From Bilabrum cf. latius (lineage: Eukaryota): DNA of 64,000 nt. A program made the translations under genes and the position numbers. The notes under the pieces are model-generated. The model was not told where the DNA came from and searched no databases. It saw only the letters and a program-made list of their open reading frames with translations. This document shows positions 8,227 through 58,100 of the stretch, piece after piece; the first letter of the stretch is position 1, and every line of letters begins with the position of its first letter. The stretch is taken from assembly GCA_965178125.1 (NCBI GenBank), contig OZ237758.1, positions 744,001 through 808,000 on the forward strand, written 5' to 3'.

Positions 8227-8386
8227 GGGTCTGGATGAAACCCCTCCTTCTAATCCAACTATCTAGGCTGAAAGGAGTGTTGTTTTTCTATCACCACCTC
8301 AGATTGAAATGCGTCGAACTTCCGCTAGACTGGTCTTCATCTTCAATTTGGTCGGCCAAGCGCCGATGAATCCTTCATAGTCTGCT

Positions 8387-18300: not shown

Positions 18301-20576
18301 GCATGCTGTCCTCCCCACTGCTGCAGATTGAAGGTGTTGACCGTCGCATTGTGTCCAAGATGGTGCAGGCTGCTTGCCTGTATGCCTCTAAGGGGATCGA
18401 GCTGGACTGGGCGGATGAAAAGAGCATTCTACCCTATGTGCATGCGAGTGAAGCTCAGTCAAAATCACTTCCTGAGCGCGGTCAGTGTGCCGGAGTTTCC
18501 ATGGCGCAGGAAGCTGGACCTGGTAGCATGGAATCGAAGGAGGCTGCGAGGACCTTGATAAGCGAGCTAGCTCACGTGTAGAGAGTAGGGGGTAGCGGTG
18601 AGCCGGATGTCCTGAAGTCGCTGTGCACCTTTTCAAAACAGTCAGCCAGCCTAGATCGCTTTAGGCTGGTGTGTCTGACTCGGCGGGCACAGATGTCGCT
18701 GGCTGGTATGGATGGGGGAGTCTCTGTTGTGCAGTGGATCCATGCTATTGCACAGTACTGGTCCAACCACGGCGGCCTTCAGAAAGCCATGAAGCTATCC
18801 GACCTTGCACTGAAAGTTCAGGAAGAGGAGTTCGGTGGGACTGTCCACCGTGACTACATTCGAGCACTGCAGCAGAAGTCGAATTGCCTCCAGCTGCTCA
18901 AAGGGAGTATTGACGACGCCGTTGCTCTTTTGCGGGAAGCAGAGGACAAGATCAAGATGCTTGAGCGTGAAAGCGATCGCAATGAGCTGCGAGGGTCCAT
19001 CTTGGAGGATTTGGGCTCGTGCTACATAACCAAAGAGGATTTCAAAAGTGCTGAGCGTACGTACAGTGACTGCGCCAAGCACTGGAGAGAGACACGGGGT
19101 GAAGGCTCGCGGGAGCATGCAAGGTCCCTGGTACTGTTGGCCGATAGCCTCGCTAGGCAGGGCACTCAGGAGAAGTACAGCGAGGCCATCCGGCTGTACG
19201 AGGAGTGCAGCGAGATGCAGGAGGCCATGGTTGGACGAGAACACGCGGACTATGCCACCACTCTGCACAAGTGGGCCAACTGCCAATGGCACCACTGGAG
19301 GCCTACGTATCGAGAAGGGTAGAAACGGCTGGCCTGTCTGCGCTACAAGGGCAGAGAATACAAGCCCCATTGGCACACTACAGTCGATGCCATGCCCGAG
19401 TTGTTGGAAGGAAAGGCCGGTCAAGCCCGCAGTATGATGGACGAAGCCAGCAAGATGCAGGAAGAGTGCCTCAGGATTCGCAAGAAGCTTCTTGGGGAGA
19501 AGCATCCTGACTGCATCAACACAATGTTGAGTTTGGCGAGCAACCTGTCTTGGATGGGCCGCTTTGATGAGTCGTACGAATAGGAGAAACGATGCCTTTC
19601 GATTATGCGGGACACTTGGGGAGAGATGCACCCCTAGTTCACTGGTAGCTTGCGGAGGCTGTGGATGCTCATAGCACGACCGGAAGGGCGGCGAATTTTG
19701 ATCTAGAAAGGCTACAACTGGGATAAGCTGCGCACCGAAATGCACGAGCTCGATCGGGAACGGGAGGACATTCTTGCCCAACACCGCATCCAGAAGAAGA
19801 TCATGGAGTGCTTCCGGGCGCCATCGATGGAGGATGCCCCAGTAACAGCGAGCCAATTCGAGGCGGAGTATCGCAGGCGGTCTCCTGAGGACCGTGGGTC
19901 GCTGCCGGAGCAGCTGTCTCGTATACAGCGCTTGACTAGACAAAGTCGCGGCACAATGGTGGGAATCCTGGAAGACATGGCCGCGCAAGGACTCCTGCAG
20001 CGGCTCAAACATGACGATGGTAGCTCACCTGATCGATATAGACAAGCAGTTGGCGGTCGACAGACCCTCTTTGATGGCATCGGGCTAGGCAGTGGCGAAG
20101 ATGAGGCACAAACTGAAATAGCAAGTGGCAAGGACTTTTCAAAGGCTGATGCTTCCCAGGATTGGAGGGTTTCATCTCCTATTCCGGTTGGTCATGCCCG
20201 AGCCCCGCAGGCATCGGGAGGAGCGGCAGGCGGCACCTTGCCTTCAGGCGGCCCCCACAGGCGCAGTCCCGAACGGGTCGGCAGGGCAGAGAGCAAGACG
20301 AGATCGGGAGCCGGTGGCTCAATCAGAGCGAGCGGCCGCGCTCCTGGGACGGCCGCTTCATCTACTCCCGGCAGCTAGAGGCGAGCGCCTGGCACGGCCA
20401 CTTCATCTACTTCCGGCAGCTGGAGGCGAGCGTAGCCGGGCGCGCGGGACGCTGACAGGGAGTCAAAGACGGTGATGGGCCACGCGTCTACTTTCGGTGG
20501 CCGGCGAGGCAGGGGGCGGGCCAGAGGTCGCGGTAGAAGCCGTGGCAATGGCAAGAGAGGGGGATACATTTGGTAA
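15301..20576 (+). CDS. Clu (clustered-mitochondria)-domain protein with kinesin-light-chain-type TPR repeats and an RG-rich C-terminus; 17 in-frame TAG; ends TAA
   Basis: Eight ORF pieces from 15375 to 20378 are in one frame, joined only by TAG. Likely short exon 1 from ATG 15301 with acceptor at 15447. Clu-like motifs GGIKFVHDKLGLFLKFAFDQEGIYGSTRMAAKAAKRE, PFDVEVHQLPSGQRMVLDTHRLLLP, MHDVGLGLRH. TPR motifs GREHADYATTLHKWA, LLGEKHPDCINTMLSLA. TAA at 20574 is followed by AT-rich sequence. Confidence 0.75.
15676..16042 (+). repeat. 180-bp (60-codon) tandem duplication inside the Clu-TPR gene
   Basis: 15676-15855 and 15856-16035 are near-identical; TAG at 15726 aligns with CAG at 15906. Confidence 0.95.
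20343..20432 (+). repeat. 45-bp tandem duplication near the Clu-TPR 3' end
   Basis: cctgggacggccgcttcatctactcccggcagctagaggcgagcg is followed by cctggcacggccacttcatctacttccggcagctggaggcgagcg. Confidence 0.9.
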
Positions 20577-20809: not shown

Positions 20810-23800
20810 TCACCAGAACGGGCACCAACCAAGGTAGCACTGAGCCAGGTTCTCATGGCTCGTTGCCTGCAGCACCAATCGCTGCACCTGCTCGTTCACT
20901 CCCAGCCTCTCATCTCGGGAGAAATCACGACCAGTCAACTTCGCCTATACCCTCGCCACCACGGACACAGCCCTCTGGTTGAGCTCCTCGGGCTTGGCCT
21001 CTTCTCCCTCGGGTCCCAGCAGAGACTGCAACTGTCTCTCCATGTCGCCCCTGTTGGCGTGCACAGATGCCGCCAGGCTCCGTGCATCCATGCCCTTGGC
21101 GCTGACACCTGCCTTCTCGGCTGCCTGCTGCATGGCGCTCTCTGTGATCATGCGGGCTCCGGCCGGCCTTGCATCCGATGATGAGTCGGCCTTGCCAGCC
21201 CCAGACGCCGCCCCGCCGCCCGCACCGCTGCCCTTCCCAGCAGAGCTGGCGGCGCTGCCTGACGCGCCGCTAGCAACACTACCTGCTGCCTTGGCTCCCG
21301 CCCCGGCAGCCCCGCCTTCCCCGTTCTTCTGCTGCTGCTGGGCGTCGTCTCCCCGAAGCAGTCTCCAGTTGATCAGCGGGTCGTGCACAAACGCCTCAAG
21401 CATGGCCATCACGCTGCTCTCGTTGGCTCGCACCACCTGCATGGTGGCCTCTGCAGTGGCCCTGTACGCGCCCTCGATGCCGCATGCCTCCATGGCCTTG
21501 ACCAGCATCCTGGTGAGTCGGAAGGGAATCATCTCTGGGAACTTCTCGCGGGTCATGGCCACCTCGAAGCAGTCGCCGAAGTCGATGTGCAGGATGGCCC
21601 CGGACCGGCGATCCAGCATGAGGTTGCTGGGGTGCCTATCGCCAAGACCCAGGATGTAGCCGACCACGGACATGACTGCGAGTGTGCGCGTGTACAGGGT
21701 ACGTCGCCCCAGCCACACCTCGGACGAGTTCGATTTGAGCCACAGGACCCTGCGAATGTCCTGGCCCTGTGTCTCATCCAGCGCGTGCGTGAACACTTCC
21801 ACCTTGTGCAGCAGTGACATGGTCTCGTACATGGGTGCCATGCGGTACATGAGCTGCCTCTCAACGTCCAAGCTGATGCGGTTCAGCTTGCGGTACTCTT
21901 TGATCAGCACGTGCAGCGTGTCGCAGTTGGGCACCCAGCCCACGATCCCCACGTTGTGCGAGAGCGGCGTGACTGCGTACCGACGGATCGCGAGGCCCTT
22001 GCGCGCCGTACCGCTGTTGTTGGCCAGCAGAGAGTTGATCAGGCCAAAGAGCTGCATGGCGCGCTCATCCTGCCTAAGGTCCTCGTGCCCCTTGAGCAAG
22101 AATGCATAGCGGCGGCCATCCGAGCCGAACACCACGATCTTCCTCGGGCGCTGCTTGCTGGTGATCACGGTGACGTGAGGCGCAAAGCCGGCGATCCGGA
22201 CCATCCTCTCGCTGCCGCTCCACGTCGTGCTGCTGCCTCCACCCATGCCATCGCTGCTCCCCCCTCCTCCACGACGGCTGGACGTACCTCCCGCGGAAAG
22301 CCCCGGGGCCATTGCCGCCAGCGCCTCGTGGGCTCGAGCACCGCCCCGCCTAGCCCGGAGACTTGCACTGCCACGCCCCAGCCCAGCCTCCTCCGCCAGC
22401 TCGGGCAGGATGGAACCCGGGATCAGCTCGTCCTCGTGGTCAATGTCGCTCTCCGCGAGGAAGGCCGCCATGCGTTCCGTCCTGCTCGTGCCCACGCCCT
22501 CTCCGTCGAGTCCCCTTCGGGCCATCTCCTCCGCAGCCCAGGAAGCCGCTGCGCCAGCCGCCGTGTAGGTGCCAGGCACGGCCAGCTCCAAGCCCTGGGC
22601 GGCAAGCAGCGTGGGCGATGTCTCGTGCAGCTTGAGCTGCGTGATCTTCGCCATGTACTTGTTGATCTGGTTGTACACGTTGTGGTACAGCTCCCACGCC
22701 TTGTCTACATCGGCGCTTCTTCGCAGGTGCTGATACCGGAGCAGGTGCTTCACGGCGTCGTTGAGATCGTTGCCGAAATGTTGCAAAAATGCGGCATCCT
22801 GGATTGTCTCCGGCCCCTTGTGCATCTGCTGGTGCATGGGGATGAGCAGCTTAAGCATGGCCTGCTGGTCGTTCTCGTCGAAGTTGTGCTTGGCGGCATC
22901 CTCCAGCGCAGCCCGCCACTCCTCTGGCCATAGAATGGCAACTCGCATGAGCTCCCGGCTCACAGTCTCAGCCTCAAGGACCAGACGCGGCCAGTGCCGC
23001 CGGAGCTCCACAACGAGCGTTTCGCCAGCGGCCCGCCTCTCCGGACTTGACGAGTTGGAGGCGACAGTGAGCGGATACACGAGAGCCTGCGGGTGGTACC
23101 TGCCGATGCGCCCGAGCAGCCCGCGCAGTATGGCAGCGGTGTGCGGTTTTCTCGTGTCCACGCGAGCGATCAGCTGCGGAATGACCTGCAGCCAGGTCAC
23201 CACATCGACCCTTCGGATAGTGTCAGCCACGCACTCTCTGACGAGAGGCAGCTCACCTGTATCGAACCACAGAGTGAGGAGTCGGAGCAGGTCCTGCAGC
23301 ACGTGCGACTGCAGCTGCGCCCGTCCCAACACGATGCTGTGCCCGAAACCAGACACTGCAGCGCTGGCGTATCTCGCCACGACCCGCCCGGGCGCCTTGG
23401 CGCGGCGGAGCTGCTACGCCGAATAGAAGTTCGCGAGAGCCCATGCGTGCCAGGGTCCATAGCGGGTCGCGCCGCACGCCCTCGCCACCCGTAGGTGGCC
23501 CAGCACGGGTGCCATGAGCTGCTCGATCCTTCGAGTGGCTTGCTCGGGAGAGTACTGCCTGGCGTGCTCCCTCTCTTCCCTCCCGCCCTCCTGGTGAGGA
23601 CTGCCAGCCCCGAACGCCGCTGCGGCACCCACTGCACCCACTGGCCCGTCGTCGTCACCGCTGAACTTTCTACCGCTCTTGATGCGTCGGCCCGCCGGAA
23701 AGGTGACGCCGCCCACACCAACACCGGACGCAGTGTCGGGCCCAGCCACCTCTTGCACCCTGGACTCAACCAGCGACCGACGCCACTCGCCCAGCCGCAA

Positions 23801-26800
23801 GTGCGCCTTCACTCGCAGCGCCGTCTCGGCTGATTCGGGCAGTCGCTTCCCGGAGCCGAACCAGTACTGGGTCAGGTTCTTGCCCCTGGCCCTTGCTGCT
23901 CCAGCAGGAGAGCTGTAGCCGCCACTGGTCCCGATTCCCAGCAGTGGGACGGAAGGGGCCTGTCGCGAGACCGGCGTGCCGACAGCAGCCGTGCCCGCGC
24001 TGGATGCCTGAGGAGGTCCAGTGCCTTTGCCCCCGTCGGCCTCTTCTGCCACCATCGGCAGCACGTGCGTTCCGCGGCTGGAGCCACGACGGAGTACGAG
24101 CCGGTCACCGGAGGAAGCACCACCTGAAGGAACACCGCCCATGGCGGGAGACTGGCCCGCATGGCTAGAGCCGTCGGCAGCGGCAGGGGGCTAGGCCCAT
24201 GTGCCGTGGCCCGGCCCAGACACGAGCACGCCGCTCCTGCCCAACACGACGTCCCGCCAGTGGGGCACGGGCGGCGGATCCAGGCCGCGTCTGCGGTGCG
24301 CCCGCGTCTCCGCCACTGCGTCGAGGGCCGTGACGAGTGCAGACAGCCGCAGCACCGCCAGTTCCTTGAAATCGGATGCCCACAGCTGCTTGCAGTACGC
24401 GAGCACGATCTGCGGGTGGGGCGGAAGGGGCGATCCGGCCCTGGGTGCGCGCGCCGCGTCGTAGCCCGGCCCGCCCAGCCCAGTGACCACCCACCCGTCC
24501 TCAAAGAGCGCCTCGGGAAGACTGCCTGGGCCGCCAGGGGCGCCTTGCGGAGACATTGACATGGTGGCCGTGATGTCACCGAGGGCGCCCGCCGCCCTGC
24601 CATCCCCTGCGCTACCAGCAGCACCGCCAGACCGCCAGCTGCCGCCCTCCTGCTCCTTCGATTCCGGATCCGAGTCCGCTCCGGGGCCCCCTTCCTCCTC
24701 TCCAGGCACCTCGTTTCCGGGTCTTGATGCCGAGGCACGACCGGCCCCAGCGGTGGCGCTGGCGCCACCTTCGGACCCGCGCCTGTTCGCTTTCCCCACC
24801 GTGCTGGCGTAGTGGAAATGAATGGACATCCCGCCCGACAGATACTACTCCACAGACAGCATCGACCCGCCAGAGCCGTCCATACCCAGCGCGAGCAGCA
24901 TCCGGAAGCCCAGTGAGCTCTCACCGCTGCTGCGGCACAGTCCGGCGTACTTGAGCCAAGACTCGGACAGCTTGCCACCCTGAGGCACGAGAGCGCGGAC
25001 GGACAGCAGGCGCTGCCACACGTCCTGCCTGTGCTGGACACCCCGCAATCTGCGCTCCCACACAGCCTGCAGGTGGCTGGCATACTCCTGGGCCGCCATC
25101 CCGGCAGCGGTGGCAGCTCCCGCCATCGGCGTCGAGCGCTCGCCAAGCATCGCCGCTGCGGCTACAGGGCCAGCCAGCGCTTCGCCCGCATCCGCGGCGC
25201 ACGCGGCAGCGGAGGCCTGTAGCCTCTTGAGCGTGACAATCTCGTCCAGCTCAACTAGCTGCTGCGCCGTCACCACGTCACGGTACATGCGCCCGTACGA
25301 CTCGTTCTGCGCTGCCTGCATGCTTAGCTTGCCCGCCAGGACGTGTCTCGCCCTGTCGACGTACCTGGACGCTGCGCTGAGAGCGCCACGGTGTGTGGCG
25401 TGGATGGCGCGGTAGAAGAGGCCCTGCAGCGTGGATGAGTCGGTCCAGCGCATGTACTGGCCCATGTCGTCCCACAGGCCGAGCGCCCACGCGGCCTGCG
25501 TGCCCATGGCCGCCATCTTCTTGAGAGCCGCCTGGCTTCCCTGGCGCTCCGCCTCAAACCAGACCCCTTCGGCAACCGTGGCAAGCTCTCGCCACCGCCC
25601 CAGCTTCTGCAGGCACCGCATGCGACCCATGTACAGCTGGAAATCGTGCGGCCTCTCCTTGAGCCGCCGGTCGTAGAAATCGAGGGCGTTGCTCCACTGG
25701 CCCAGCTTCTCGTACCACCTCTCCTCCGAGTCAAAGACCCTGCGTCGATCGCCGGCACCGTCACCACTTGTTCCCTGAGAGGCAGCGAGATCCGCATCCA
25801 GATCATCGCGGGCCTCTGCCGCATCCTCCTCGTCAAGGTCCCAGCCTCGGGCGCCGAGCGGCTTGCCGCGCCCCCGCCTGGCCAGCTTGAGCAGACCCAC
25901 CGCTGCCTCTGGCTGCTCCAGCTGATTGTAGATGCTGATCAGATCGTCCACACAGCTGACGTCGCCCTGGTGCCACTGCACCTCGCGGTAGTGGAGTGCC
26001 TTCGCGTATGCCTCGCACTGCAGGGCAAGGTCACCGAGGTCCTGGATGCTGATCGACAGCGGCTTGTTGTCGTGCTCCATGAACTCTGCAAGGTTGAGCA
26101 GCCTGCGCAGCACGTCCTGAGGCGTGGAGTCGCTCCGCATCGCGACTTCAAGGGCCTCGCAGAGTGACCTCTGGTCGTCGGGGCCCATCTGCAGCCAGCA
26201 AGACACGAAAGCACCATCGAAGAGCTCCCTGGCGAGGGGCCGGATCACCTGTGCAACGGTGGCGCAGCTTCGCAGCGCGGCGTTGGGAGACTGCTGCAGC
26301 AACGACTTGGCAAGGTTCTGCATCCAGTCGCTCCAGTCGTCTGCCGTGGTGCGTCCCCGCGTGTCCCAGTTCTGCCGCAGCTGCTGCATCTGCACTGCCT
26401 ACGCCCGCATGTTGCCCCGCGCCGGCCTGGCAGGCTGGCCCGCGCCCTAGGGACCATTCTTCGCGGCATCGGCACGCTGCTGCGCCTCTGTCTGGAACCG
26501 CCTCGCGAAGGGAGACAGTCCGGGACCGATCCCCGCCTACACGGGGTCTGGCGGCAGCGGCCCTCCGTCGAGAAGTAGAGCCGCGAGCCGCTCAAAGGCG
26601 ACGTGCTTGAGGCCGTAGCCGCTAGCACCGGCTCCATACAGGTACTAGGCCCCAGACCCGCCGTCACCCCCCAAGTCGGCCGACCCGCCCGCAGCCGAGG
26701 AGGACGCGCCTGCCTCCAGCCCGATGCCCGGCTGCCCACGCAGCATCGCTCTGCGAATCAAAGGCAGATACACGACGAATTCCTCGCGCATCTGGCACAT

Positions 26801-29800
26801 AAGGTAGCAGAGCGAGTCAAGGCAGGCTGCCTTGACCTGCCACGGGGTCTTGAGGCCCCAGGGCCCGACAGAACCAGGCGCTGCTGAGGTGCCCGACAGA
26901 CCCAGCAGCTGCAAGCCAAGCGTCGGCGCGTTGCCGTCTGCAGCCGGCACCGCGGCCGGCACGGACGCGGTGCCGTCGCCTTCCGCCCCCGCTGGCCGCA
27001 GCGCAGCTTGTGCGATCAGCAGGATGCGCTCAACGGACACTTCGTCCTGCGGCTGCTGCGGCATGCCGAGCTCAGCCTCGGACGACTCAAGGCATGACAG
27101 CTTGGTGGCTGCGTCGGCTATACGCATGGTAGGGCCGTGCAGACCATTATCGCCGGACATGAAGCCACCCCCCGATCCAATAGGCACGGCCAGGCCGAGC
27201 GTTGCCCCGACTCCGTCTTCTGCAGCTCTGGACGGCTTCGGCTCATCACCGAGGACACGAGCCACCGGGTGCACAATCTGCGGTGCAAATCGTTCCAGCC
27301 TGCACGTCGAAGCAAAGGTGCAGAGGCACAGCGCGGCGTATGACCTAGCAAGGGCACCGGCATCTCTCCTCTCAATCACCCCAGCAATGGCGGGGATCAG
27401 CTGGGGAGCGAAGTCTCGCAGCATGGGAGCAAGCGCGTGCACGATCAGCAGCACGTGCCTGGCGCCTTGCGATCGTCTCTCGGCCCGAGAGGCGGCAAGC
27501 GCCGCGGCAGCTGCGGGATTTCGGGCCTGGCCAGCTCCGCCGGAGGCTGTGCGCGCCGTTGCCGCCCCGCCGCGCGAGCCAGCGGCACCGCCAGTGCCTG
27601 CACCGGCGCCGCGCGCGGTTCCGTCGGACGACCCCATCCCGACGGCTGCACCGGCGGGGGGCAAGGAGCCGCAGGGGTGCCTCAGGACGGCCAGGATGGG
27701 GGGAATCACCACGGGCAGGAATGGCCTGCACCCTTCCAGCAAGGCAGACGCGATCGCCTCCAGGAGCTGCAGCAGAGGACCGACCATGGGACTGGCAGCA
27801 GCGGCAGCGGCCGCGCCCGGCGAGTCCAAGCCGTGTGTCGCACCGGCTTGGTCCTCGCGACCAGCCGCACCCATGGCCGACCCGCCCACTGCGGCTGCGG
27901 CAGCTGCTGCCGCGGCCGCGGCCGCCGCACCCCGCGCCGCCCTCGGCATCGCATCACCGTCGAGCCCGCCTCGGCCAGACCCCGCCCCCGCGCGACCACC
28001 AGCCCGGCTCGAGCCCCGGAAGAAGGCCTGTTCCTCTGCGGACACAGAGCCGGTCCAGCCGCCCACCCCGCCGTTCGCGGGACCGCCCAATCCGGACGTT
28101 CGCGTCGCCTCCGACACGGCTTCGTCAAGCCCGAGCAGCTGCAGAGCGCTGACACCATCTGATGCCGCCTCACCGCCGCCTCGACCGCCTCCCGCAGACC
28201 CACCCACCGAGCTCTTGGCTAGCGCGGCGCGAATGGCGGCAGCTCCAGATGCCAGCCAGACGTGTCGGAGCAGTCCGATCATGCCAGGCACGAACGGCAG
28301 AATCATGCTGCCTACCAGCTGCACCAGTACCGCCAGCTGCTTCAGCAAAGCCTCCTGCAGCGATGGCGCCGTCTCTGGCCTCCGAAGGATTTCAAGCAGC
28401 GGGGGTATGACGAGAGGCAGGAACGGCTGGCAGCGGAGACCAAGCGAAGTGAAGATCCTGGTGAGGGCTTGGAGCACGTCGTCGTGGTGCGCCGACTGGC
28501 TCCGGTTCCTGAGCACCCTCATGAGCGCAGTGATGGTCAGCGTCGGGTAATAGTCTTCTTCTGCGCCCAGCATGGACGGAAGGATCACCACGTTGTCGGC
28601 AGGATCCATTGCCGCCACCGCGGCCGTCGCGCCCAGCCCGCCCCCACCTGGCCCCAGACCCCCGCCCCCGCCCGCGCCCGCCGCAGCCAGGTATCCGTTC
28701 TGAGGCAGCACGCCGCCCCACGCGCCGACGCCCACGCCGGCCGCCGCCAGGCCCCCGCGCCCGGCCGTGGCCTTCCTCATGCCAGCAGTTACGGCTCCGA
28801 GTCCCGCCAAAGGCCCCTGTCCGAAGGCGTTCATGCCGCCAGGGGCACCCACGGCCGAGGCGCCGAGCGGCCTTGCGATGCTGCCGCCGCCGGCCTGAAG
28901 ACCCACGTGCTGCAGGAGCTGCGCGTGGTGAGACGCCATGCCTGAGCCGCCGGAGAGGGCACCGGCGAGCTGTGGCAGGGCGTGGATGAGCGAACCGTGC
29001 CCGCCGCTGTTGGGGCCCGGGGAGGACCCCATCAGCGCGGCTGCCAGTGCCTGCGCCGGGGCCATCGGCATCCCGCTGGAGCTGCCAAGGCCAGCACCAG
29101 GGCCTATCCCGAATGGTGACCCCGCCGCGCCGAAAATGTGCTGGCTGTGCGCATCCGATCCCAGGCCCATCCTCCCAGCAGTGCCACCCCCGGACACGGC
29201 ACCAAACAGCAGCTGAGAGATCGCGCTCGCGGCTGCACCCGGCCCAGCACCACCCGCAGCGATGCTGAACGCATCCGTGCCCACGCCAGCAGACGCCTGG
29301 GAACCAAATCCAACAGAGGGACCACCGAAGCCCTTTAGCCACTCGTTCGCGGCTGCAGGCAGCTAAGCCAGCGCTCCCGCCCCGGCACCTCCCTACCCGC
29401 TCAGCGCCATCGCAGACGCAGCCGCTGCCGCAAGTGCCTCGTCATCATCAGCCGCATCCACACCTTCCCCTTCCACAAGGGCGACAGCATCCGCCCCGGC
29501 AGCGCCTGCGCCCAGCAGCTCACGCAGGCCTGCAAGCGACAGACCCCCACCGTCGTCCCCGCCACCAACGGCCCCACCAGCACCGCCGGCACCGAACCCC
29601 ATGAACCTTCGCCTTCCCCTAGTCCCCAGACCAGGACCCCTCGTGTACTCGGCGTCCGTCACCTGCACGCCAGAGGAGAGGAAAGCATCTGCGGGCGTGC
29701 CGCCGCCCGCCCCTTGCGCCAAGAGAACCAGGTACAGATAAAGGGGCAGCGCCTCCGGTGGAAGGCCGCTCCACTCAGACAAAATGCCCCACGGGCCACC

Positions 29801-32800
29801 CACCCAGGAGTTGCCACCACCAGCCGCGGACGCCGCCGCCACTGCTGCTGCCCTCCTGGCACCCGATTCCGCGCCACGTCTGGCAGCAGAATCGCCACCG
29901 GCTCCCGGGCCACCACCCACCGTGGTCCGCCTGCTGCCGCCCGCGGTCCCAGCACCACTTACATCGTCCTGCCCCATGCCCATCCCATCCAGGTCACCCC
30001 CAGCATCTGCCTCAGCAAGGAGCGTCTGCCCCGCCGCTTGCGTGCCGGCCACGGTGGCTGCTGCCGCCCTCGCGACAAGCGTGCTCGAGCCACCGCCTCG
30101 CGCCGCCGAAAACGCCGCGGCAAGTGCCGCGTGACTCGCAGCCGCCGCTTCCGCCTTTGCAGCCGCCATCGCCGCCCTGATCATCTCCAGCCGCTTGGGA
30201 TCAAGAGCGCCCACGATGCCGAGCGCCCTGAGTGCCTCTCGGCGCAGCCTCCAGGTGGCGTGCTGCAGGGTCTGCAGGTGACCGGAGAGCTGGCCGTCAG
30301 GCCCAGCGATCGCCTCTGCCGCAGCAATCGCAGTGGATCCAATGTCGCTGGCACCCATGGCCCCCGCCACAGCCGCAGCCCCAGGGGCAATGGCCAGAGT
30401 GGCGAGCAGGTCGGGCAGCAGCTGCGGATAATCCACGAATGGAGTCACCACGGTTCCCGTGTTCTCCACCACGCAGGCCAGCGCTCTGAGCGCCATCTCC
30501 TGCCTGGCTGGCACGGTGAAATCGCCGCAGGGACGCACCAGCGCGGGCATCAGGGACGCCAGCCTGGGACGAAGCACTGAGGGTGCTAGCACCGCCAGCT
30601 CCGAGAGAGCCGCCAGCGCAGCCGTCGCGACCCCAGGCTCCCTATCGCTCAGCTGCGGAGTGATGGTCTGCAGCACCAGAGGGGCGTAGGGCCGGATCAT
30701 GCTGCGAGCAGACCGCATGAGGACCGCGAGCAACCTGGCCGCGTACCGTCGCGCCCTGGGTCCCGCTGCGTAGTGCGTGTCGCCTATCACGTCGAGAAGA
30801 AGCGTTCGGAGGTCCGCGGCCACGCTCAGCGGGTTCCTCCGAGTTGCCCTGCCAAGGCACACGACGGCCTCCTCCCTGACCCTGTGGCTCTCGTCGCGGA
30901 GACACACCCGTATGCTGGGGATGGTCTCTGGGAGGGCGAGGAGGGGGGCGAACCTCGGGTCCTGGCCCATGACGCGGAGCACGCCCGCCCGGATGGCAGG
31001 GTCAGGGTCGGCAGTGGCCGCCATGAGCAGACGCTGGAAGACGTCCTGGGCCATCGCAGCTGCGGGGCCAGAGCCCACGAGCAGCATGGGCAGGACAGCC
31101 AGCGGAGGAGGGCCCGCGTGCCTGGCGAGGCCGGAAGCACTCGCCAAGGTGTCGCGCTGCGGGGAAACGAAGGATCCACGGGTGGATTGGCCGCCGGTCG
31201 CCCCGCCTGCGTGCCCGCCCCACTCTCCCTCCGTTGCACCGGGCATGGTCACCCCCCCGAACTCAGAGGTGGAGGCTGCGGCGTGCGCGGGCACGACGGG
31301 AGGTGCTGGCGGCATGTCAGTCCCACCGCCCTGCAACCACGCGCCAGGAGCAGACCCAGCCGACGGTGGTGCCAGGGCGGGCGCAATCGTCACACCCGCA
31401 GCGCCTAACCCACCGTCGTCTGATAGTTCCGCCGCGTTCCGCAGCGCCGCGATAGCCTGCCTGCCCTCCCTCTGCTGCACCTGCAGCCGCAGCAGCGTAG
31501 CCTGCACCTCCAACTTGCGGTCCTCCTCCTCCGCCCAGCGCCACCACAGCGACGTCCCGCCCAGCGCCGCGGCCATGGCGTCCTCGGGCGGAACGATCCC
31601 GCTGCCTCCAAACGCCGCGCCCTTCCGCGCTGCCTCCCTACGAATGGGCCCAAACACACCCTCCTCGTCATCGGCCGGCCGCACCAGCACGCGGTAGCAC
31701 GTCTCGAGCGCCTCTCGCCTCACGGACGGATCCTCGTCATCGAGGTAACCGAGCACACTATCCCGCGTGAAGGAAAGCAACGGCACGCCCCTGAAGTCAA
31801 AGGCCCACAGGGCACGCAGTGCCAGGCACGTCACGGCCACGTCGATCCGCCTAGCGCGCGTGCGCTGGGCCTCGATACCCGTTGACGGCACCTCAACGCC
31901 AGCCCCAGCCCCGGAACCCCCGGCACCAGCGCCAGATGCAGCCCCAGCCCCCGCCCCGGATGGGATGGCACCGGCTGCCCCGTCAAGACCCCTGACCGGC
32001 GTGCCAGCCAGCAGGCTAGCTTCCCAGGAGTTGTGCTCCGCACTAAAACCGAGGCCCTCACCGAGCGCCAGGCTGGATTCCCCCGCGAGGGCTCGGCCGG
32101 TTGTGCCCGAAGCAGGCAGCGCGCCGGTAGCGGCGGCGTCCTCCGCCAGCCCGGAAGTGAGCCTGAGGCCGCTCCCAGCGAGTGCGCGCGCCGCCCGGGC
32201 GCGCCGAGTCGAGATGACGTCGGTGCCGGAGGGCAGATGCACGTGCGATGGCGGGAGGGGGGCTCCATTGGAAGGGGCGGCTGGCATGGGCGGAGAGACC
32301 AGAGCCGGACCCAAAGGGCCGCTGAGAGCTGCGTGGGCAGCAGCCACCTGCGGCGAAATGAGGGCAAGGCTGCTCTCCGCGCCCGCAACTGAGCCGGCCT
32401 CGTTGATGGAGGAGGCGTTGGAAGAACGGCGGGAGCTCGCGCGCCGCCGCCCGGAGCCACCCGGTGACTGGGAGCTCACCGAGCCGCGACCGCTTCGGCT
32501 CTTCCTCGAGTCAGACGACGTCATGCGCCCGCGCTGCAGGGAAGGCGCGGCCCCGCCCGCCGACTGCGGCATCGCGGCTGCGTTCACGCCGTCTTGCACC
32601 GTTGCAGAGGCCCCACCGCTCGCACCGTCTCCTCCAGCGGCGCGCTTCTCGGCCTCTCCTACCAGGCTCCTGAGCTTTGCCGCGGCCTTGTTCAGCACCT
32701 CAATCCCCATGGGCCCCTGCTGTGCAGCTAGCCTGGCTTGCTTGACGTGCTCGTCTGCCTCGGCATCGCGAAGTGCCTTTTCCTCCACGTGCTGCTGCTG

Positions 32801-34443
32801 TAAAGCCCACGTGGACGGCACGGCCGACCCCGCAGCCTCGATGGGCCTGGTGAGCGGCACGGCAGTCGGCAAGACCACGGCTGGCTCCGCGGGCGGCTGC
32901 TTGAAAGGCTCGCCCGCCAGAACAAGGCTGATTTCGTGCAGCAATCGCTCCTGCAGCAGCGGCAGCGCCGCAGGCACGCACACGGCAAGCTCTGCCAGCG
33001 CCGCCAGCAGCCTGTGGGTGAGACCGGCCCCGAACATAGCGTCTAGGAGGAGATGCACCCGCGGTGTGAGCGCGGGCCCGATGGCTCTCGCAAGCATCGC
33101 CACGGTTGTGAGGGCGGGAGGACAGAAGAAGAGCCCCTGCTGCGGGTTGTGGGTCAGCGCCTCCCGCAGCAGGAGCACCGCATCGGGCAGCCGAGCTCGT
33201 ACGAAGGCTACGGCTGACGTCTCGAACCGAGTGGCGAGCGCAAGCCGACCCAGAGCCAGGAATGCTGTGGCTCTGTCGTGCTAGGCCTCAATCGCAGCGG
33301 CAGATCCCTGAGTCAGCGACTCTGTCTTCATTTTCTGCAGCAGCAGCGTGATTGCCCGCTTGATGTGCCGTGCCGCGAACTGCCTCGGCGAGAACTCGGC
33401 CAGCTGCGGCACGAGCGCGACCACCGCGCTGCTGACCACGGGGTCTGTGCTCTCCCTGTACTTCAGGACCATCTCGCACGCCTCGTTGTACCTGGCTGCC
33501 ATGACGGTCCTACTGCCCGCGAGCAGTTCCCTGAGACAGAGCATCGCGCCGTGGAGCCGGGCCGTGCTCTGTGACCCCCCCTCGCCCCCTTTCAGCGCTT
33601 CTTCAAGGCTTCGGTAGGCGTCCCGGCTGTAGCTGCGGAGCTGGTCAGAGCGTCGCAGCTGGAGGACCCGCAACCCCTCCCGGAGGGCCTCCGCAGCGGC
33701 GATTCGAACCGATATGCTGTCGTCCGACTGCGAGGTCCAGTAGTTGGCGAAGAACTCGTCGATCTTCTGGTTGAAAAAGGTCGGCGCGTTGATGGCAGTT
33801 TCTCGGAGGACCAGCATGGCCGCCAATCTCCATGTGGTGTGCTTGGTCTCCGGCACCATCCTCTCCAGTGACCGCTGCAGCTCAAAGTTGACGATCTCGG
33901 CCTTGAGGCCGCTGCCAGCGCGGGCCAGCTTCCCGAAGGCGCTGCTCGCCTGCCGTATGGTGGCCTCGTCGCACGTCGGGGATGCAAACACCGCCTGCAG
34001 GGATCCAGCAAACCTGATGAATTTCGATTCGTCTTCCCGCAGGCGGACGTCGATGAGCTCGTGGATCGCGCACACGCCTGCGGCTCTATCGTCGTTCTGC
34101 CGGGAATTCACGAGGTCCGAGACGCCGCGCATCAGCTCATTGAAAAACCGTTTGAACGCGTCGGCGGGCAGGCTTTGTGCAACATTGCGAACCACGTCTC
34201 GAAGCCTTCGCGCAGCTTGCAGGCGGCCCTGCGCACAAATACGGTGGTGGCGGTACGGTAGTGTGAAGTGGTGACTGTAGACCTGAGGACATGTTCTGTA
34301 GCATCCTTTCGAGATCAAAGTCGCGCGGCAAAACCAAAAAGTAGGAGAGGTACAGCTATCAATGGAATGCAATCCAGCCTCACCTCAATCGACCCTGCCG
34401 CCCGGAGCTCCCCGAGGGCAGCTGCCCCCAAAGCCAGAGCCAT
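20810..34443 (-). CDS. TOR: Target of rapamycin kinase, ~4,490 aa (HEAT, FAT, FRB, PIKK kinase, FATC); exons 34443-34384 and 34228-20810; 11 in-frame TAG
   Basis: Seven ORFs share one frame and are separated only by TAG (33281, 29393, 29363, 26645, 26537, 26447, 26399, 24845, 24191, 23414, 20945). Motifs [84 protein letters not shown], and [25 protein letters not shown]. Confidence 0.97.
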
Positions 34444-35366: not shown

Positions 35367-35373
35367 GGAAGGC

Positions 35374-42017: not shown

Positions 42018-42096
42018 CCAACACCACGAGGCTCTGGGCCACCGCCCTGCCCGCCAGCTTACCCAGCCGCAGCCGAGCCTCGTGGGGTGCGCCACT

Positions 42097-44428: not shown

Positions 44429-44971
44429 ATCCATCGCCAGATTTTCGTGTTCAGAGTTGCCCCACTCTAGCTCCACGCACTGCACGATTCCCCCAAGACC
44501 ATTAGCTTCCACATGACGCTCGGCTTGTCGCACGACCGGCCCCAGATCGGTCGCAATAATTCGGCGTGGTCGCACGGCATCCAGACGTCCGAGTACCATG
44601 GCCACGATTCCCGTGCCGGTGCCGAGCTCAATTACTGATCGTGTGTCCCAATGAAGATCGCTGCTTTCCAGCCATTTCCCCATCACGCTTGCACCGTCCC
44701 ACACCCGATGACCAACCATCCCATGCCCCTCCTTGATCGCGATGCGCTCCAGTTGACCAGCACGCGAAGACTGACACTCAGAATCGAAATCGTACTTGTA
44801 TACCCCATCGGCCCCGTCCACAGTCGTCACCCCGCGCTTCCATGCTTTTTCTCGTTCCCAATCTGCGTATCGCTACGCATCGTGCGCGGGAGCCTTATGC
44901 TTGCGCGCTTCGACTGAACCCAACTTGCTTAAGAAAGCTGCGCTTATGCCACTTCTTTGCTTTTTGGGCAT
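43668..44971 (-). CDS. METTL21/Methyltransf_16-family protein lysine methyltransferase with an internal frame discontinuity (~44260-44360); 1 in-frame TAG
   Basis: ATG 44971. Motifs VGHRVWDGASVM, VIELGTGTGIV, IIATDL, ELEWG lie in one frame. LLLACDLAAP..VEPLLDTI and the C-terminus ending TGA 43668 lie in the -1 frame. Confidence 0.75.
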
Positions 44972-45112
44972 CTGCTGCTGAAGCCGCAAAATGCTCTGCA
45001 AAAATTGCTCCGAATCTCGACAGTCTGCCCGATAAGTTCCGCTACTCGCAGCAGTCTACCACCTTTACGCAGTGGCACGACCAAGGTTTTCGTTGTACTC
45101 AATACGTTTCGA
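44972..45112. promoter_or_regulatory. 141-bp divergent intergenic region, probable bidirectional promoter (methyltransferase / PI4K)
   Basis: Head-to-head ATGs at 44971 (-) and 45113 (+). Confidence 0.5.
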
Positions 45113-48100
45113 ATGTCTTTCTGCTGCGGCTCTTGCTTCTGCTGCTGCGGCTGCTGCGAGGAGGAGCCGGATGAGCTGTACGACCAGCACGATCCAGAGG
45201 AGCAGCGTCGGCGGACCAAGCGAAAATACAGGGACTTGATGAACGTAGCGTTTGCATCCAGGGCATTCAAGAGCGGGACACATCAGAAGGATGTGACTTT
45301 TCGAACCGTAGGAGCATTGTATGCCAATGAGGTGAGGCGGCGTTTGGTTGAAAATTTCTATGGGTTTCGTCTGCGGGAAAGACGCTCCTTTCGGCAGTGC
45401 TAGACCGTTTCATGTATCTATTTTTAATCTGACGCGTGCCCGTACGCAGCCCGGCGTCGTGCAACGGCTCTACGAGCAGCACGAACTGGAGCCAACTAGG
45501 ATGAGGTTCTTCGTGAATCATCTCGTAAATCAGCTCGTGCGAGGGGAAATGGAAGAGAAAATAGGGCTAGAAGGATTCATAATTGGGAAGAGCGAATAGT
45601 GAGCCACCAAGTACTATCTGTCGACACTCCCGGACGGTATCCCGTCAATTTGCCCTGCAACGGCCGCTCTCACCTCTTGCCTCGCAGGTCAATTCTGTTC
45701 GCGCACCGCGTGCTTTGGTTCCTCCATGCATTTGCACCCGACTCGCGATATGCTTCAAAGCTGTGCAGGGCCATTGCGTCGCGCTGCGAGTCTTCCGACC
45801 AAATGCAGCGGATTGCTCGCTCCGTGCGCATGCTCCGGCAGCCCCACTCGCCCATGGCAGACGCGGTATTTCTGCGCGGCAGCCTGTGCGCCAGACGATC
45901 GTTCTTGCTCGGAGCTTTGGCCGGAAACCACGTGCATGCGCCCGTGCAGGCCGGCGAGCAGCGAAACGCCGCACTGGCCGCAGTCCGCCAGTTCGGGCTG
46001 CAGGCCATGCAGGTATTCACCGACGCCATGACAGCAGCCACGGGACTGGTGCGCGGCAGGGGCGGTTCCGCAGGCTCGATCGACAGTGCGGGGGTAGATC
46101 CAGGGAACAACAACGGCAAGAATGGCAGGGAGAGGGGTCTGAAAGATGACAGGCTGCACCGGGGCAGCCGACCGGGCGTAGAGCTGTCGCACGCGGCGTC
46201 CCAGCTCTCCATCGACCCCGGGGCTCAGGGAACAGCGATGGAGGAAGGGGAGGCTCCGCCGGGCTCACTTTCAGCCCCGCTGCCACCGGGCGGTTCCGCA
46301 GGCGCCGCGGCGCCGGGGGACTCCCGCCGGTCCTCGATGGCCAGCAGCCGGGCGGAGCGGGTGCACTCGATCGAGACCAGGAGCAGGCAGGACTCGCTGT
46401 CCTCCATCGCAGGGACGCCCGCCGGCAGTGGCGCGGGAGGGGGTGCCGCCGCCGGGGCGTCGGCGGATGGTTCCGCAGCCGGCGCCGCGCGGCCGTCGCA
46501 CGGACCCCGCCCCGCCCCTGCAGCCACCCCTGGCCCCACCGACGCCACCGCCGCCGACGCGGAACTCTTCCTGAGGAACGTTCGTTTCTGCGAGCAGCTC
46601 TCGGAGCTCTCGAGGGACCTCAAGGCAGTCCCAGTCCCGGAGAGGAACGACCGGCTGAGGCACCAGCTGAGGGCGATCGACAGGTTCTACTGCGGGCAGG
46701 ACCGAGTCCTCGCCGCGGGCGCCGCGCCACCAAGCGTTCCTGGTTCCGCAGGGGCTGCCGCAGCGCCGGTTCCGCTGACGAACGGCCTGGTGTACGTCCC
46801 TGTGGGGAACTGCCACAACACCCTGCTGAAGGTTCATCCGGAGAACAGCTTCTGCTTCCGGACCAAAGAGAGGGTGCCATTCATGGTCGTGTTTGAGGTG
46901 TTGGAGTACGCAGACATGAAGGGGGGCCCCATCCGGCCCAGGGAACAAGAGGGGGAGCACGGGGGGTCTGTCGGGGGCGCGGCAGGGGGGGGTGCCGCAG
47001 GCGCCGCCGCGGACACGGTCCGCTGGATCCAGAAGCGGCTGGGGTTCGGCGGAGAGGGCACCGAGGGAACAGCGGCCGCGTCACGAGCCGCGGAACAGAC
47101 TCCGCTCCGTGTGGGCGGGGTGATCCCCGGGACGGGCACGGCCGGTGGCGTCGCGGCGGGGGCACACGGGGGTGAGGCCGCCGCTGGCGGGTCAAGCACG
47201 CGGGGCCGAGCGGCCTCCAGTGCGGCCAACTCGTACGGCACTGCTGATAGCCCGCCGCCCGGCGTGCTGCCCTCGGCTGATGCCTCCGGTGGCGCGGGCC
47301 GCCGCGGAGCTGAAACCGCCAAGCTCAACCCCTTGCAGGGTCTGCAACCGGCAGACGCGCAGACGGGTCGCCCTCAGGGAGGTGGTCAAACCGGCCGATC
47401 GGTCGCAAATCCCTTGGGCCAGTGGGCCTCGGGTGCCCCCCCAGGGAACAGCGGGGCACCCCCCGGCTCGAGCCTCGCGCACGGGGGCAGCGGTGCGGGT
47501 GCTGGTGCTGGTGCTGATGCTGGTGGGTCCTACCACCACGGCTCGGCCCTATCCTATGGGCCAGGGAACAGCAGGAGGGACGGAAGCGGTGCCGGCGGTG
47601 GTGGTATTCCCAGGACCAAGTCGGGTGCGTTCATAGATTCGTTTCACGAGCAGCAGCACCACGAGCAGCAGATGGGTGCAGGCATGCGCCAGGGTAGGCA
47701 CGTCGTCGGCACGCTCCACTCTCCGGTGAAGGAATCCCACGAGGAGGTAGAGGAGGAAGAAGAAGGCAGGGACTCTTCGTCCATGACCTCTCCCCGATTG
47801 GGGGAACACAGGGGGTCGCTCGACTCCACCGGTGGACCAGACGGCGGCGGCAGCCTCGCGTCTGCGAGCGGAATCTCACCCCAGCTGTCCCCAGCCAGGC
47901 ACCCAGTGAGCAGCCCCATGTACGCGTCCAGCAAGCGCTCCGAGGAATTAGACAGACCGCTCATGCTGCCCTCACCCACGCTCCCGCCCTCGTCTTCCTA
48001 GTCACAGAGGGGCAGCGGGCCCCACGCCAGGAGCCACCTGCCGGCGCCCCAAGACAGCAGGGAACTGGAGGCGCAGCTGGCCTCGGAGCTAGACCCGGCT

Positions 48101-49150
48101 CTCATGTCACACTCGGCGGCGGCTGCGGCCGCAGGGGCCTCTCAGGGCAAGCAGGATGGGGAGCGCAAGGGCGCCGCGCGTGGATCTGGTGGTTCCGCAG
48201 CCTCCGGCAGCGGCGGTGGTGAGGGTGGCGAGGGCGAGGGCCAGCGCGAGAAGAAATCGGTGTCGGTCGCTTTCCCGGACCCCTGGGCCACGGTGGAGGC
48301 GGTCAAGCGGCGCGAGAGCCGCTGGGGCCACCTGCCCGGCTGGCGCCTAGTTCCGGTGATCGTCAAGGCGAACGACGACCTGAGGCAGGAGCAGTTCGTG
48401 TCCCAGCTCCTGCGGGTGTTCCAGGACATCTGGGAGGACAAGTAGACCCCCGTGTGGGTGCGCGCCTACGACATTCTGGCTACATCCAAGGACGGCGGGA
48501 TGATCGAGGCGGTGCCGGACACGATCTCCCTGGACTCGCTCAAGCGCGCCGACCCGAACTACACGACGCTCCGCGATTTCTACGCGAGGCACTGGGGCGG
48601 CGGCTCGGACCGCTCAGCAGGGTTCCGGAAGGCGAGAGATGCGTTCCTCACGAGCCTGGCGGGCTACTCGATCATCTGCTACCTGCTCAACATCAAGGAC
48701 CGGCACAACGCCAACATTCTGATCGACAGGGAGGGCAGGGTGCTGCACATCGATTTCGGGTTCTTGCTGAGCAACTCGCCGGGTGGCAACATGAACTTCG
48801 AGAACGCGCCCTTCAAGCTGACTGCGGATTTCATCGACTTGCTCGGCGGGACTACGTCGGCGGAGTTTGAGCAGTTCAGGCGCGCGTGCGCCATGGCATT
48901 CATCGCGGCGAGGCAGCGCTACGGCAAGATCATGCTCATGGTTGAAGTCATGCTGGACGGCAATGAGGACCTTCCTTGCTTCCGAGCAGGCAAAGTGCAA
49001 GTTATGCGAGAGCTGCGGGAGCGATTTGCCCTGGGGGAGGATCACAGAGACCTCATCACGTACGTGAACAACCTCATTGACGCGTCGGCGAATAGCTGGA
49101 GAACAGGCTGCTACGACGCGTTTTAGAGGTGCTCCATGGGAATTTTGTGA
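45113..49150 (+). CDS. PI4KB: Phosphatidylinositol 4-kinase type III beta-like; exons 45113-45331, 45450-45598, 45688-49150; 4 in-frame TAG (one split by an intron)
   Basis: Motifs SILFAHRVLWFL, FRTKERVPFMVVFEV, WRLVPVIVKANDDLRQEQF, SLAGYSIICYLLNIKDRHNANILID, HIDFGFLLSNSPGGNMNFENAPFKLT, and C-terminus CYDAF*RCSMGIL-TGA. Confidence 0.93.
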
Positions 49151-55119: not shown

Positions 55120-58100
55120 ATGGACAGGGTGAGACAGTGACGAAACAACCGATTACCTTCGAACGATGCAGCGATACAACAATAATTCAAAACCTAAATA
55201 TCTTGTATCTGTGCTGCTTGCCGTAATTCGCAGTTTCTGTAGCGGCAGCCTAAACCAGAAGCTGGTACAGTTTCTGAGGGTGCTTCTGCCGCGGAGTCTG
55301 AGAGAAAAGACGATTCAAAACCTAGCCCGGCTGCAACGCAATCTGCACCGGCGCAGCAGGTGCCGGGCGCCCAGGCGTCTGAACCTGCGAGCTCCAGTAG
55401 CCCGACGGCTCCGCCTTTGCAGTCAGGCTCCAAACTGTCGGGTGGCAACCCTGCGTAGTCCAGCTTGGCTTCGCTATCCAGGAGCGGCTCATCGAAGAGC
55501 TCGGCATCCTCAGCCAGCGCATCCTCTAGCTCTTCCTCAAAAGCAGCCCCTGGAAAGAGCCTCAGTGCCATCATGCGAGATCGGTAGCAGGCTTCAGCTC
55601 AGCTGCAAACTCTTTAGAAGGAGCTTCAGAAGCTGACCCGCCAGGAAACCGCCATCCGCAAGCGTGCCGACGACTACGAGCGCAAACACTTGGAAAAAGA
55701 AGAGGCCCTGCGGAAGCAATTGCAGGCGCTGTAGAAGCCGTCCAAGGTGAGGTACACATGTAATCCCCCGCACACTCTCGGGCGGCATTCCTTGTCAATC
55801 CGTGGGTCGCAGACACTACGGTGCGTCCAGTGGACACGTCCCCGAGCACTTGCTCCGCGCCCCCGGGCCTTCCCCCCCCCCCCCCCCCTCACACCCCACC
55901 AACCGACACACCGCGTACCCCGCCGCCAAACTCATCCTCCGCAGAAGCGCTCTACCCAGCCATTCCCTGCTCCCGACGCCATGGTACCCTTGCTGCAGCG
56001 AGCCGCGGATTTCGCACAGACGCAGCAACGCCAGCAGCAGCAGCAGCAGCAGCAGCAGACCAAGCCGGCCGGCAAACCGGAAGCAGCCGCTCAATCGGCC
56101 CCGTAGTCGGAGGGCAGCGCCGCCCCCGCAACCCCACCCACCGGCGCGAAGACAAAGGCTAGGCCAAGCCGGCCCGCCCCCCGGGACCTCGCAGAGGCGC
56201 TTCGGCTGCCACACGCCTGCGTTGGGGACGTATTGCAGGCGTGGGATTTCCTCCGCAGGTTCATACGCCGCGGCTTCCTCGATGCCTCCCCCAAGGCGTG
56301 TGCGGAGGGCATGGTGGACTGCCACGAGGACGTGCAGGTGGACGATCCTGCCACGCTGGCGGCCCGGCCGGCCGATGGGACCGCGACCGTGGGCGTGAGG
56401 AGCTCTGGGCGGAGCCGGATGGCTGTTGCCGGTAGCAATGATGCGTCAGCGACTGCTGGTACGTTGCCTGGGTCTAATTCCCTGGAAGTCTCCTCTTCGG
56501 CCACCTCAGGCAGCGGCTCTGCTCTGCAGTCGGATCGAGCAGACAAGGCCGAGAAGATGCAGGCTTCCGGACTCACGCTCGACCTGGGAAACCTGGAGCT
56601 GGAGGAGCTGAGCATCGCGCTGCGGCGCCCCGAGTTCCGCTGCGCCCGCGTGCTGAACAGGCTGCACACCGCTCTGCTGAGGGTCGTGCTGGAGGATGTC
56701 GAAGGCAGCCTTGAAGACCGCGCCAAGAGCGGCAAGCACGGCCACGGGAGCCACGGAGGGGGGCACGGGTCGCTGATGCTAGAGGCGGCCGAGGGCGTCA
56801 CGGGAGCCTCTGCTTCCCTACGGGCCCCCAAGCTCGCCATGCTGTCGCCGCTGACGTGGCCACATCTCCTCGGGTGAGACAAAGAGAGCACTGTGCGGCC
56901 ACCTGCACGCTGACGAGTTGCGATGAGCTGCGGGGTTTCCGCTGCTGCAACAGACCCCAACCATAGCGCGTTGCTCTTTCTGTGGGTCACCCACGTCTTC
57001 CATTCTTGTGTTTTCTCCATGGTCGCAGCTAGATGCTTGAAGACGGTCTCGGAGATGACTGGGAAGAGTTCCAGGATCTCGCCACGCCCGGTAAGATCAA
57101 GCCCTTGTGTTGCAATTGTTCCGACGGAGGGCCTTGCTTGCGTATCCCGTTGCGGCTGTGTGCTTGCTTGCCTTGCGTGCGCTTGGTACTGTGCTTGTAC
57201 CGGTGTATCTTGACACCGCTTAAATGCCTCTGTCTCTACTGTTGGTTTCACCTAAATGGCTCCCACTCATCCCTCTGTGGTCGCAGGCGTTCGGGCGGCC
57301 ATCCGCCGCCTCAACAAGGCAGACTACGCCGCCCTCTCTATCGCGGAGCGAGTGGCCATCCTCAAATACCTGGTGGACTGCGTCACTGCCACCATCAATT
57401 TCTCCGAGATGATGGACGACGTGGACGTCCAGCGACAGGAGGCCGTGAAGGAGCACGCCTCCGAGGAGGAGAGGTACCTGGCAAGAATCAAGAAGCAGAA
57501 GCAGGAGGCCAAAGAGGCTAGCGCGGAGAGGGTCGAGAAGCTGCAGGAGCAGCTCAAGCTGGCTCTGGAAGAGCTGGGCGAGGACGACGACAGCATGGCA
57601 CCCAAACCCAAGGCAAAGGCCAGCTCGGCCAAAGGCAGTAACACCTCCAAGGCAGCTGCGAGCGGGAAGAAGCCGAAAAAGGAGGGCGAGAGCACGGCCT
57701 CGAAGCAGGCAAAGCTGCCCGTGGCCTCCAGCGGGCAGGCTGCCATGGAGGACGGCGAGCAGGCCGGCTCTGGCGGCACAAAGGCAGGGGGTGCGGACAA
57801 GGACGAGGTGCTCGAAGTGGAAGACAGCTCTGGCGAGGAAGACGAGGGCGAGGGCGATGATGAAGAGGAAGATGATGATTCCGACCTCGATTCGGTCGGT
57901 AGCTTCAACTCGCAGGCGAGCGAATTCAAGGAGATGGGCAGCGCGGCGGTGAGGCAGAAGCGGCTGGAGCACGACAGGCACAGGAAAGCCAGGATCGAAG
58001 AGAAACGAAGGCAGAAGCGACTCGCCAAGGCCGCAGAAACAATCGAGACCAAGCGGACCGAGCTGATTGCGGAGATGAAGGGTGCTGCAGCCGCCAAGGA

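Follow-up and report, generated by a model that had tools for sequence, protein, structure and literature searches.

The window analysed here, a stretch of 64,000 nucleotides with a GC content of 0.55–0.70 (about 60%) and few introns, is eukaryotic nuclear DNA. Pfam matches name a TOR kinase, a histidine-kinase-like protein, a CLU/TPR_12 protein, a U-box protein, a PI 4-kinase (PI4K, type III beta-like), an exportin-7, a DDT/WHIM protein, an F-BAR protein, two C2H2 zinc-finger paralogues and a cofilin-fold protein among its products. To these is added a cyclin, with a Cyclin_N match of about 4e-10 in one exon alone. The TOR product displays the FAT, FRB, PI3_PI4_kinase (5.6e-71) and FATC domains. 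TAG was translated as X so that homologue searches stay unbiased, and single TAG codons are cited below by their X number. The main features are collected in Table 1.

Table 1. Genes and TAG codons of the window discussed in the text, in order of position.
Feature	Position	Strand	Remarks
Histidine-kinase-like ORF (gene A)	1..8298, runs off the window	-	25 in-frame TAG
Cyclin gene	10772..12966 (region 10683-14269)	+	four GT..AG introns; TGA end
CLU/TPR_12 ORF (gene B)	15372..20576	+	17 in-frame TAG; TAA end
Gene B TAG X1404	19581..19583	+	hydrophobic TPR core position
Gene B TAG X1422	19635..19637	+	'HP-D' position of TPR
TOR ORF	20810..34384	-	4524 codons, 11 in-frame TAG; TGA end
TOR TAG X4480	20945..20947	-	not a conserved Gln column
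TOR TAG X2662	26399..26401	-	Leu-dominated column
PI4K ORF	45428..49150	+	PI3_PI4_kinase 3.5e-36; open only with TAG read; TGA end
PI4K TAG X1006	48443..48445	+	kinase domain, variable polar column
PI4K TAG X1233	49124..49126	+	invariant Gln column
DDT/WHIM TAG	57030..57032	+	in frame only after removal of intron 56874-57028

Several duplicated or less certain elements lie among these genes. An inverted segmental duplication (34600-37300 versus 41800-45100) carries the two zinc-finger paralogues, at 36253-37236 on the minus strand and 42468-43544 on the plus strand, which are 82% identical. About 6 kb from TOR stands a near-identical partial copy of its 3' end (14251-15083 versus 20476-22175), which is 99.4% identical over the last 176 codons, extends into a flank and keeps the in-frame TAG. 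The CLU-like part of gene B (16009-16675) finds many contigs in related runs, up to 28 in X11, as well as several 55-68%-identical fragments in the protein search, and probably belongs to a family with several copies in this lineage. A possible GST-like gene with in-frame TAGs lies on the minus strand at 10092-10388 and 8833-10029, its GST_N_3 match staying below the Pfam cut-off (E about 0.003-0.03). By eye, the plus-strand segment 49427-49750 resembles the missing N-terminal exon of exportin-7, again with in-frame TAGs; neither the Pfam nor the PDB search lent support to this presumed exon.

Nine large ORFs, amounting to 15,187 codons, contain 78 TAG in frame and not a single TAA or TGA, whereas 202 TAG, 57 TAA and 545 TGA occur in the two remaining frames of these stretches. 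With standard stops the longest ORF has 1295 codons; once TAG is read through, the longest frames reach 4524, 2766 (running off the window), 1734, 1251 and 1240 codons. This read-through restores TOR, PI4K, the cyclin and others, and both the Pfam domains and the orthologue alignments run on across the TAGs. Setting TAA to sense only adds short tails to the ORFs. TGA terminates 11 of 12 ORFs and TAA one, the TPR gene, some of the smaller gene models being uncertain. The in-frame counts, the ORF ends and the TAA-sense reading thus indicate that TAG is sense and that TGA and TAA are stops, and the status of TAG as a sense codon in this nuclear DNA is practically beyond doubt. The base after TAG displays no bias (p 0.33). 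A Tyr codon (TAC or TAT) follows TAG six times in the nine large ORFs against 1.1 expected, with p 0.001 uncorrected and about 0.06 once corrected for 61 codons. No tRNA gene or Rfam family was found within the window, and the eRF1 gene lies outside it.

The cyclin gene provides a view of splicing. A 767-nt contig of run X5 joins 10683-10946, 11109-11275 and 11529-11736 across GT..AG stretches, and further joints lead from 11736 to 11853 and from 11978 to 12254. The four introns measure 162, 253, 116 and 275 nt, so that canonical splicing operates in this otherwise intron-poor region. The joined exons form 462 codons with in-frame TAG at 10850, 11159, 11915 and 12802, which come on top of the 78 mentioned above; the spliced X5 contig retains the first two of these with no differing letter. 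The run X5 belongs to another study than the four best-matching runs. Whether it represents RNA or DNA is uncertain; none of the listed runs is on record as RNA. Stretches of X5 contigs without any difference to the window cover 25 TAG codons, and among the listed differences to runs X5, X11, X12 and X13 (40 of 1804; positions 1-20000) none falls in a TAG codon. The minus-strand ORFs at 12217-14421, which overlap the last cyclin exon, are probably spurious.

The in-frame TAGs cited in the initial annotation are indeed present in PI4K (X1233) and TOR (X4480), at 55585, 55615 and 17052, and at 40165 on the minus strand. The DDT/WHIM one, cited in the context TWPHLLG, is there too, but it comes into frame only after removal of a 155-nt GT..AG intron deduced from the sequence, the unspliced frame meeting a TGA at 56875.

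The clearest indication of the residue comes from the 3' end of PI4K, which reads CYDAF-TAG-RCSMGIL-TGA. In a 120-protein alignment the column of X1233 contains Q in 119 of 119 orthologues, the 120th protein, P0123, ending there. The RCSMGIL stretch beyond X1233 still matches the orthologue C-terminus, and in human PI4KB chains ydgfQyltngi aligns to ydafXrcsmgi, with Q opposite the TAG. The C-terminal consensus of the PI4KIII-beta family, on which the initial annotation had relied, therefore holds. P0123 is a Logan-derived PI4K (1026 of 1172 residues identical, about 88%) whose ORF ends at F1232, exactly at X1233. Opposite the other PI4K TAGs it carries S at X858, within a low-complexity and loosely aligned part, and K at X1006. 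The latter column is composed of K42 S29 N10 R10 G9 Q7 E5 of 120, and the Pfam score with X1006 set to one residue is 59.1 bits for N, 58.1 for K, 58.0 for Q and 56.5 for L. When metagenomes were scanned with P0124, a single contig of 1605 nt came up, without an informative TAG. At the other end of the gene (45428-45800), the PI4K ORF has no ATG where P0123 starts, the M of P0123 standing opposite L.

The TOR columns are of another kind. Seven of the 11 TOR TAGs fall in columns that are gapped in 107-120 of 120 orthologues, and X2646 is variable (P13 S10 V9 G9 A8 T6 Q6, 43 gaps). The X2662 column reads L85 M11 V5 Y4 I2 Q2 A1 with 8 gaps, of 120, and X3657 reads S49 L20 Q11 E10 T8. The TAG X4480, which had been taken as a Gln position, does not behave as one, with S51 Q17 R15 N14 K9 A7 of 120 and with Q, S, Q and R in the four nearest orthologues.

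For gene B, the columns were derived from an alignment to 150 representatives. Leu occupies the X1404 column in 349 of 528 aligned stretches and is also found in the 80%-identical homologue P0373. The X1422 column contains D189 S41 N37 E23 Q6 of 409, and P0373 ends there, which points to a shared stop. The remaining columns are L110 E51 A46 with 114 gaps at X1317, R7 K5 Q3 of 21 at X1070 and E6 R3 of 23 at X1445. Homologue fragments of this gene (72-85% identical) carry K opposite X794 and L opposite X1404. Two of their ends, at X806 and X1422, are shared stops, and others lie opposite the CAG of residue 726 and the AAG of residue 976 of the window gene. In the U-box gene, X204 lies opposite N, P, T and M in solved U-boxes and is uninformative.

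A calibrated test was applied to these columns. A TAG column was considered usable if 20 or more residues were aligned there and gaps did not exceed 40%, which is the case for 12 of the 78 TAGs (TOR 4, PI4K 3, the TPR gene 5), the other 66 being without a usable column. The profiles exclude P0123 and stretches of at least 70% identity. The score is the summed log-odds per residue, with a substitution table learned on the same alignments, and the null consists of 4000 random sets of 12 window positions truly carrying each residue. In 83-100% of draws such a true set points back to the residue it carries, or in 66-100% if conservation-matched. For the TAG set the log-odds are +1.97 for Q, +0.91 for S and -0.36 for K, all others being lower. 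The fraction of true sets with so low a score is 0.048 for Q, 0.008 for S, 0.0008 for T and 0 for the rest. With conservation matching it becomes 0.099 for Q, 0.018 for S, 0.002 for L and 0.0005 for T, and 0/4000 for all other residues, K, E, W and Y included. Gln is thus top-ranked and the sole residue that is not rejected, its own fit lying in the lower tail (p 0.05 unmatched, 0.10 matched). The preference for Gln over Trp, Leu and Tyr, already expressed in the initial annotation, agrees with this result.

The call leans on one column, since without X1233 Ser (0.99) outranks Gln (0.40). This column carries considerable weight, though it is a single one: columns with at least 90% Q are found at 15 of the 146 Gln positions of the window, against 1 of 98 for K, 1 of 200 for E, 0 of 220 for S and 0 of 422 for L, so that X1233 is worth a roughly ten-fold or greater ratio. 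It is the only Gln column among the 12 opposite TAG. Columns with at least 60% Leu are observed twice among the 12 (X2662, L 85/112; X1404, L 348/525), as compared with 3 of 146 true Gln positions and 225 of 422 true Leu positions. The Leu count is 0/119 at X1233, 0/120 at X4480 and 0/119 at X1006. Tabulating the residues of orthologues opposite TAG gives a mixed picture, all Gln at X1233 and Leu-dominated in two of the usable columns. That conserved positions identify the residue, as had been claimed, overstates the case for Gln: this residue does come first and alone escapes rejection, but the PI4K C-terminal column is the only conserved Gln one.

Another view was obtained by setting TAG to each of the 20 residues and scanning the Pfam bit scores of the cyclin, of the weak GST_N_3 match, of a TPR_10 pair and of the PI4K domain. 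The summed scores are 151.7 for D, 150.2 for N, 149.5 for Q (third), 147.8 for S, 146.4 for E, 145.5 for L and 144.0 for W, K scoring too low on the TPR segment to be reported. At the cyclin and GST sites, the worst scores are those of Leu, Ile, Phe and Trp. The residues within two places of TAG give a log-likelihood of -875.0 for the background, -879.1 for Q and -873.0 for K. The argument that TAG sits in Q/E-rich coils, also part of the earlier case for Gln, was dropped, since the surroundings of TAG fit the background composition as well as the neighbourhood of any residue. The Gln conclusion itself is probably right and the grounds first given for it are partly sound.

Close homologues and repeats allow a comparison at shorter distance. 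For the kinase-like gene, two fragments from ENA, 60-70% identical, have their ends opposite CAG (2234) and GAG (2267), where a TAG is presumed. A 180-nt tandem repeat has TAG (15726) versus CAG (15906), a 45-nt repeat TAG (20376) versus TGG (20421), and the zinc-finger paralogues TAG (42657) versus TGG; this pair alone was used from an all-against-all comparison of the window ORFs, which gave mostly low-complexity matches in non-coding frames. A homologue search with gene A and shorter proteins brought two matches, none of them spanning a TAG, and a look-up of homologue clusters added one near-identical member and nothing else. Over the 11 pairs, the partners opposite TAG or presumed TAG are K in three, Q in three, W in two, and S, L and E in one each. 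Two homologue ORFs ending opposite CAG and the CAG copy of the tandem repeat speak for Gln. All six partner residues have a codon that differs from TAG by a single base, and in the seven pairs where the partner DNA was seen, the partner codon is such a single-base neighbour. At constrained sites, a TAG that was neutrally synonymous with CAG would be expected to face mostly Q, and no such CAG excess is observed (Q 3/11). Under weak constraint, the spread of partners does not discriminate between residues. It leads many of the TAGs to be read as young, and not as having another meaning.

TAG density differs widely between the genes. Per 1000 codons it reaches 9.0 in the kinase-like gene, 9.8 in the TPR gene and 10.7 in the first part of DDT (stretches 1-8298, 15372-20576 and 55198-56874), and it amounts to 6.4 and 6.8 in the U-box and F-BAR genes. 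The values are only 2.4 in TOR, 2.6 in PI4K, 1.7 in the second part of DDT and 0 in exportin-7 (low-density stretches 20810-34384, 45428-49150 and 50153-53611). The density is therefore about four times or more higher in fast-evolving genes (9-11) than in conserved ones (0-2.6), which suggests that highly constrained or highly expressed genes avoid TAG.

Judged from these alignments, UAG is probably read as glutamine, in a code resembling NCBI table 15; we would give this reading a probability of about 70%. The foremost alternative is that UAG stands for another single amino acid, Ser and Lys being the least unlikely, followed by Leu or Glu. Ser is first or second in 6 of the 12 columns, besides taking the lead once X1233 is removed. 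Lys is the partner in three of the 11 close pairs (X1006, X794 and the AAG at residue 976 of gene B) and the commonest residue in the X1006 column; Glu is found opposite X561 of gene B in three of three aligned homologues. Leu dominates X2662 and X1404 and leads at X1317. The charging of Ser and Leu tRNAs does not read the anticodon, so that a CUA variant of either would easily evolve. Codes with UAG as Leu do exist, in the rhizarian exLh (PMC5304391) and in three uncultivated phyllopharyngean ciliates (PMC11687900). As in the window, where two to three TAG columns are Leu-rich, UAG alone is reassigned in these codes; unlike them, the window has an invariant Gln column and polar columns, which reject Leu (p 0.002). 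Ser, Lys, Leu and Glu each score 0/119 at X1233, and the matched calibration leaves 0.018 for Ser and 0/4000 for Lys and Glu. The poor Pfam scores at the cyclin and GST sites, where Leu, Ile, Phe and Trp come last, go in the same direction, and another single meaning appears rather unlikely.

It is also conceivable, if unlikely, that UAG is a young and still costly sense codon caught early in its reassignment, possibly with multi-residue decoding. New TAGs would then arise from AAG, TTG, TCG, GAG, TGG and CAG codons and would be tolerated mainly in fast-evolving genes. The organism may in that case lack a fully dedicated tRNA-Gln(CUA), and more than one residue might be inserted. Such an organism would be a natural model for stop-codon capture.

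Decoding could also be ambiguous, UAG having no single dedicated meaning and near-cognate tRNAs (for Gln, Lys, Tyr or others) inserting mixed residues after eRF1 loses UAG. In yeast, near-cognate tRNAs are known to insert Gln, Tyr and Lys at UAG. The lack of any residue that fits well, Gln being the best at p 0.05-0.10, would be in line with such mixing, as would the spread of partners over K, Q, W, S, L and E and the depletion of TAG in conserved genes (0-2.6 versus 9-11 per 1000), as for a costly codon. Against this, two lineages have retained TAG at a position of an essential kinase where Gln is invariant, which argues for reliable Gln insertion; the base after TAG is unbiased, and the spread of partners is equally expected from young codons made by point mutation. 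Ambiguous decoding is thus quite improbable. As for TAGs that would not be translated at all, because of introns, RNA editing, sequencing errors or pseudogenes, the position of some of them in low-complexity insertions (the seven TOR TAGs in gap columns) and the possession of GT..AG introns weigh little against alignments that cross TAGs without frame change or inserted sequence, a spliced contig that still has its TAGs, second-study contigs identical over 25 TAG codons, and the in-frame count of 78 TAG, 0 TAA and 0 TGA, and this explanation is close to refuted.

A FastTree analysis of 2180 TOR columns places the window as sister to a JGI protein (0.99), and this pair inside a clade with two Phytophthora, one Nannochloropsis and two unnamed sequences (0.998). 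The best named PI4K matches are from oomycetes, Triparma, Aurantiochytrium and Hondaea, the names being those given by the sources. NCBI table 15, used for Blepharisma nuclei and with TAG=Q in some phages, has in common with the window that TAG alone is reassigned, TAA and TGA being stops. In contrast to the table 15 organisms, the window belongs to a different lineage, with about 60% GC and few introns, and Gln is here the probable meaning. Table 6 (ciliate, dasycladacean and Hexamita nuclei), in which TAA and TAG both encode Gln, shares the reading of TAG as Gln, but TAA is not sense in the window (0 in frame versus 57 in the other frames) and it ends gene B.

Closer counterparts have been described. 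The fornicate Iotanema spirale has UAG as Gln with UAA and UGA as stops (PMC5304391); UAG and UAA are thus decoupled in a nuclear code as they are here, with UAG as Gln, but the primary terminator reported there is UAA, unlike the window (TGA 11/12, TAA 1/12). In the phyllopharyngean ciliates Hartmannula sinica and Trochilia petrani, UAG is putatively Gln (PMC11687900), with UAG alone reassigned and its meaning deduced from sequence, as in the present case. These are ciliates with UAA as the preferred stop, whereas the window is stramenopile-like and prefers TGA. A full-text literature search, with most subscription journals outside its reach, found no report of nuclear UAG reassignment in stramenopiles.

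The picture that would account best for these observations is that of a nuclear variant code in a stramenopile-like eukaryote, in which UAG is translated, most probably as Gln, with UGA as the usual terminator and UAA as a rare one. The putative decoder would be a tRNA-Gln with anticodon CUA, and eRF1 would have lost the recognition of UAG. Many of the TAGs look young, lying at sites where homologues or orthologues have Lys, Leu, Ser, Glu or Trp.

In practical terms, annotation under the standard stops would fragment most long genes of such a genome, TOR falling into a dozen pieces. Correct protein sequences, proteomics and expression in other hosts all depend on assigning the right residue. 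If the stramenopile placement holds, this would bring nuclear UAG reassignment to a further major eukaryotic group and represent an independent origin of a UAG-only change, with UGA and not UAA as the main terminator. The uneven spread of TAG codons, which look young, is relevant to the question of stop-codon capture.
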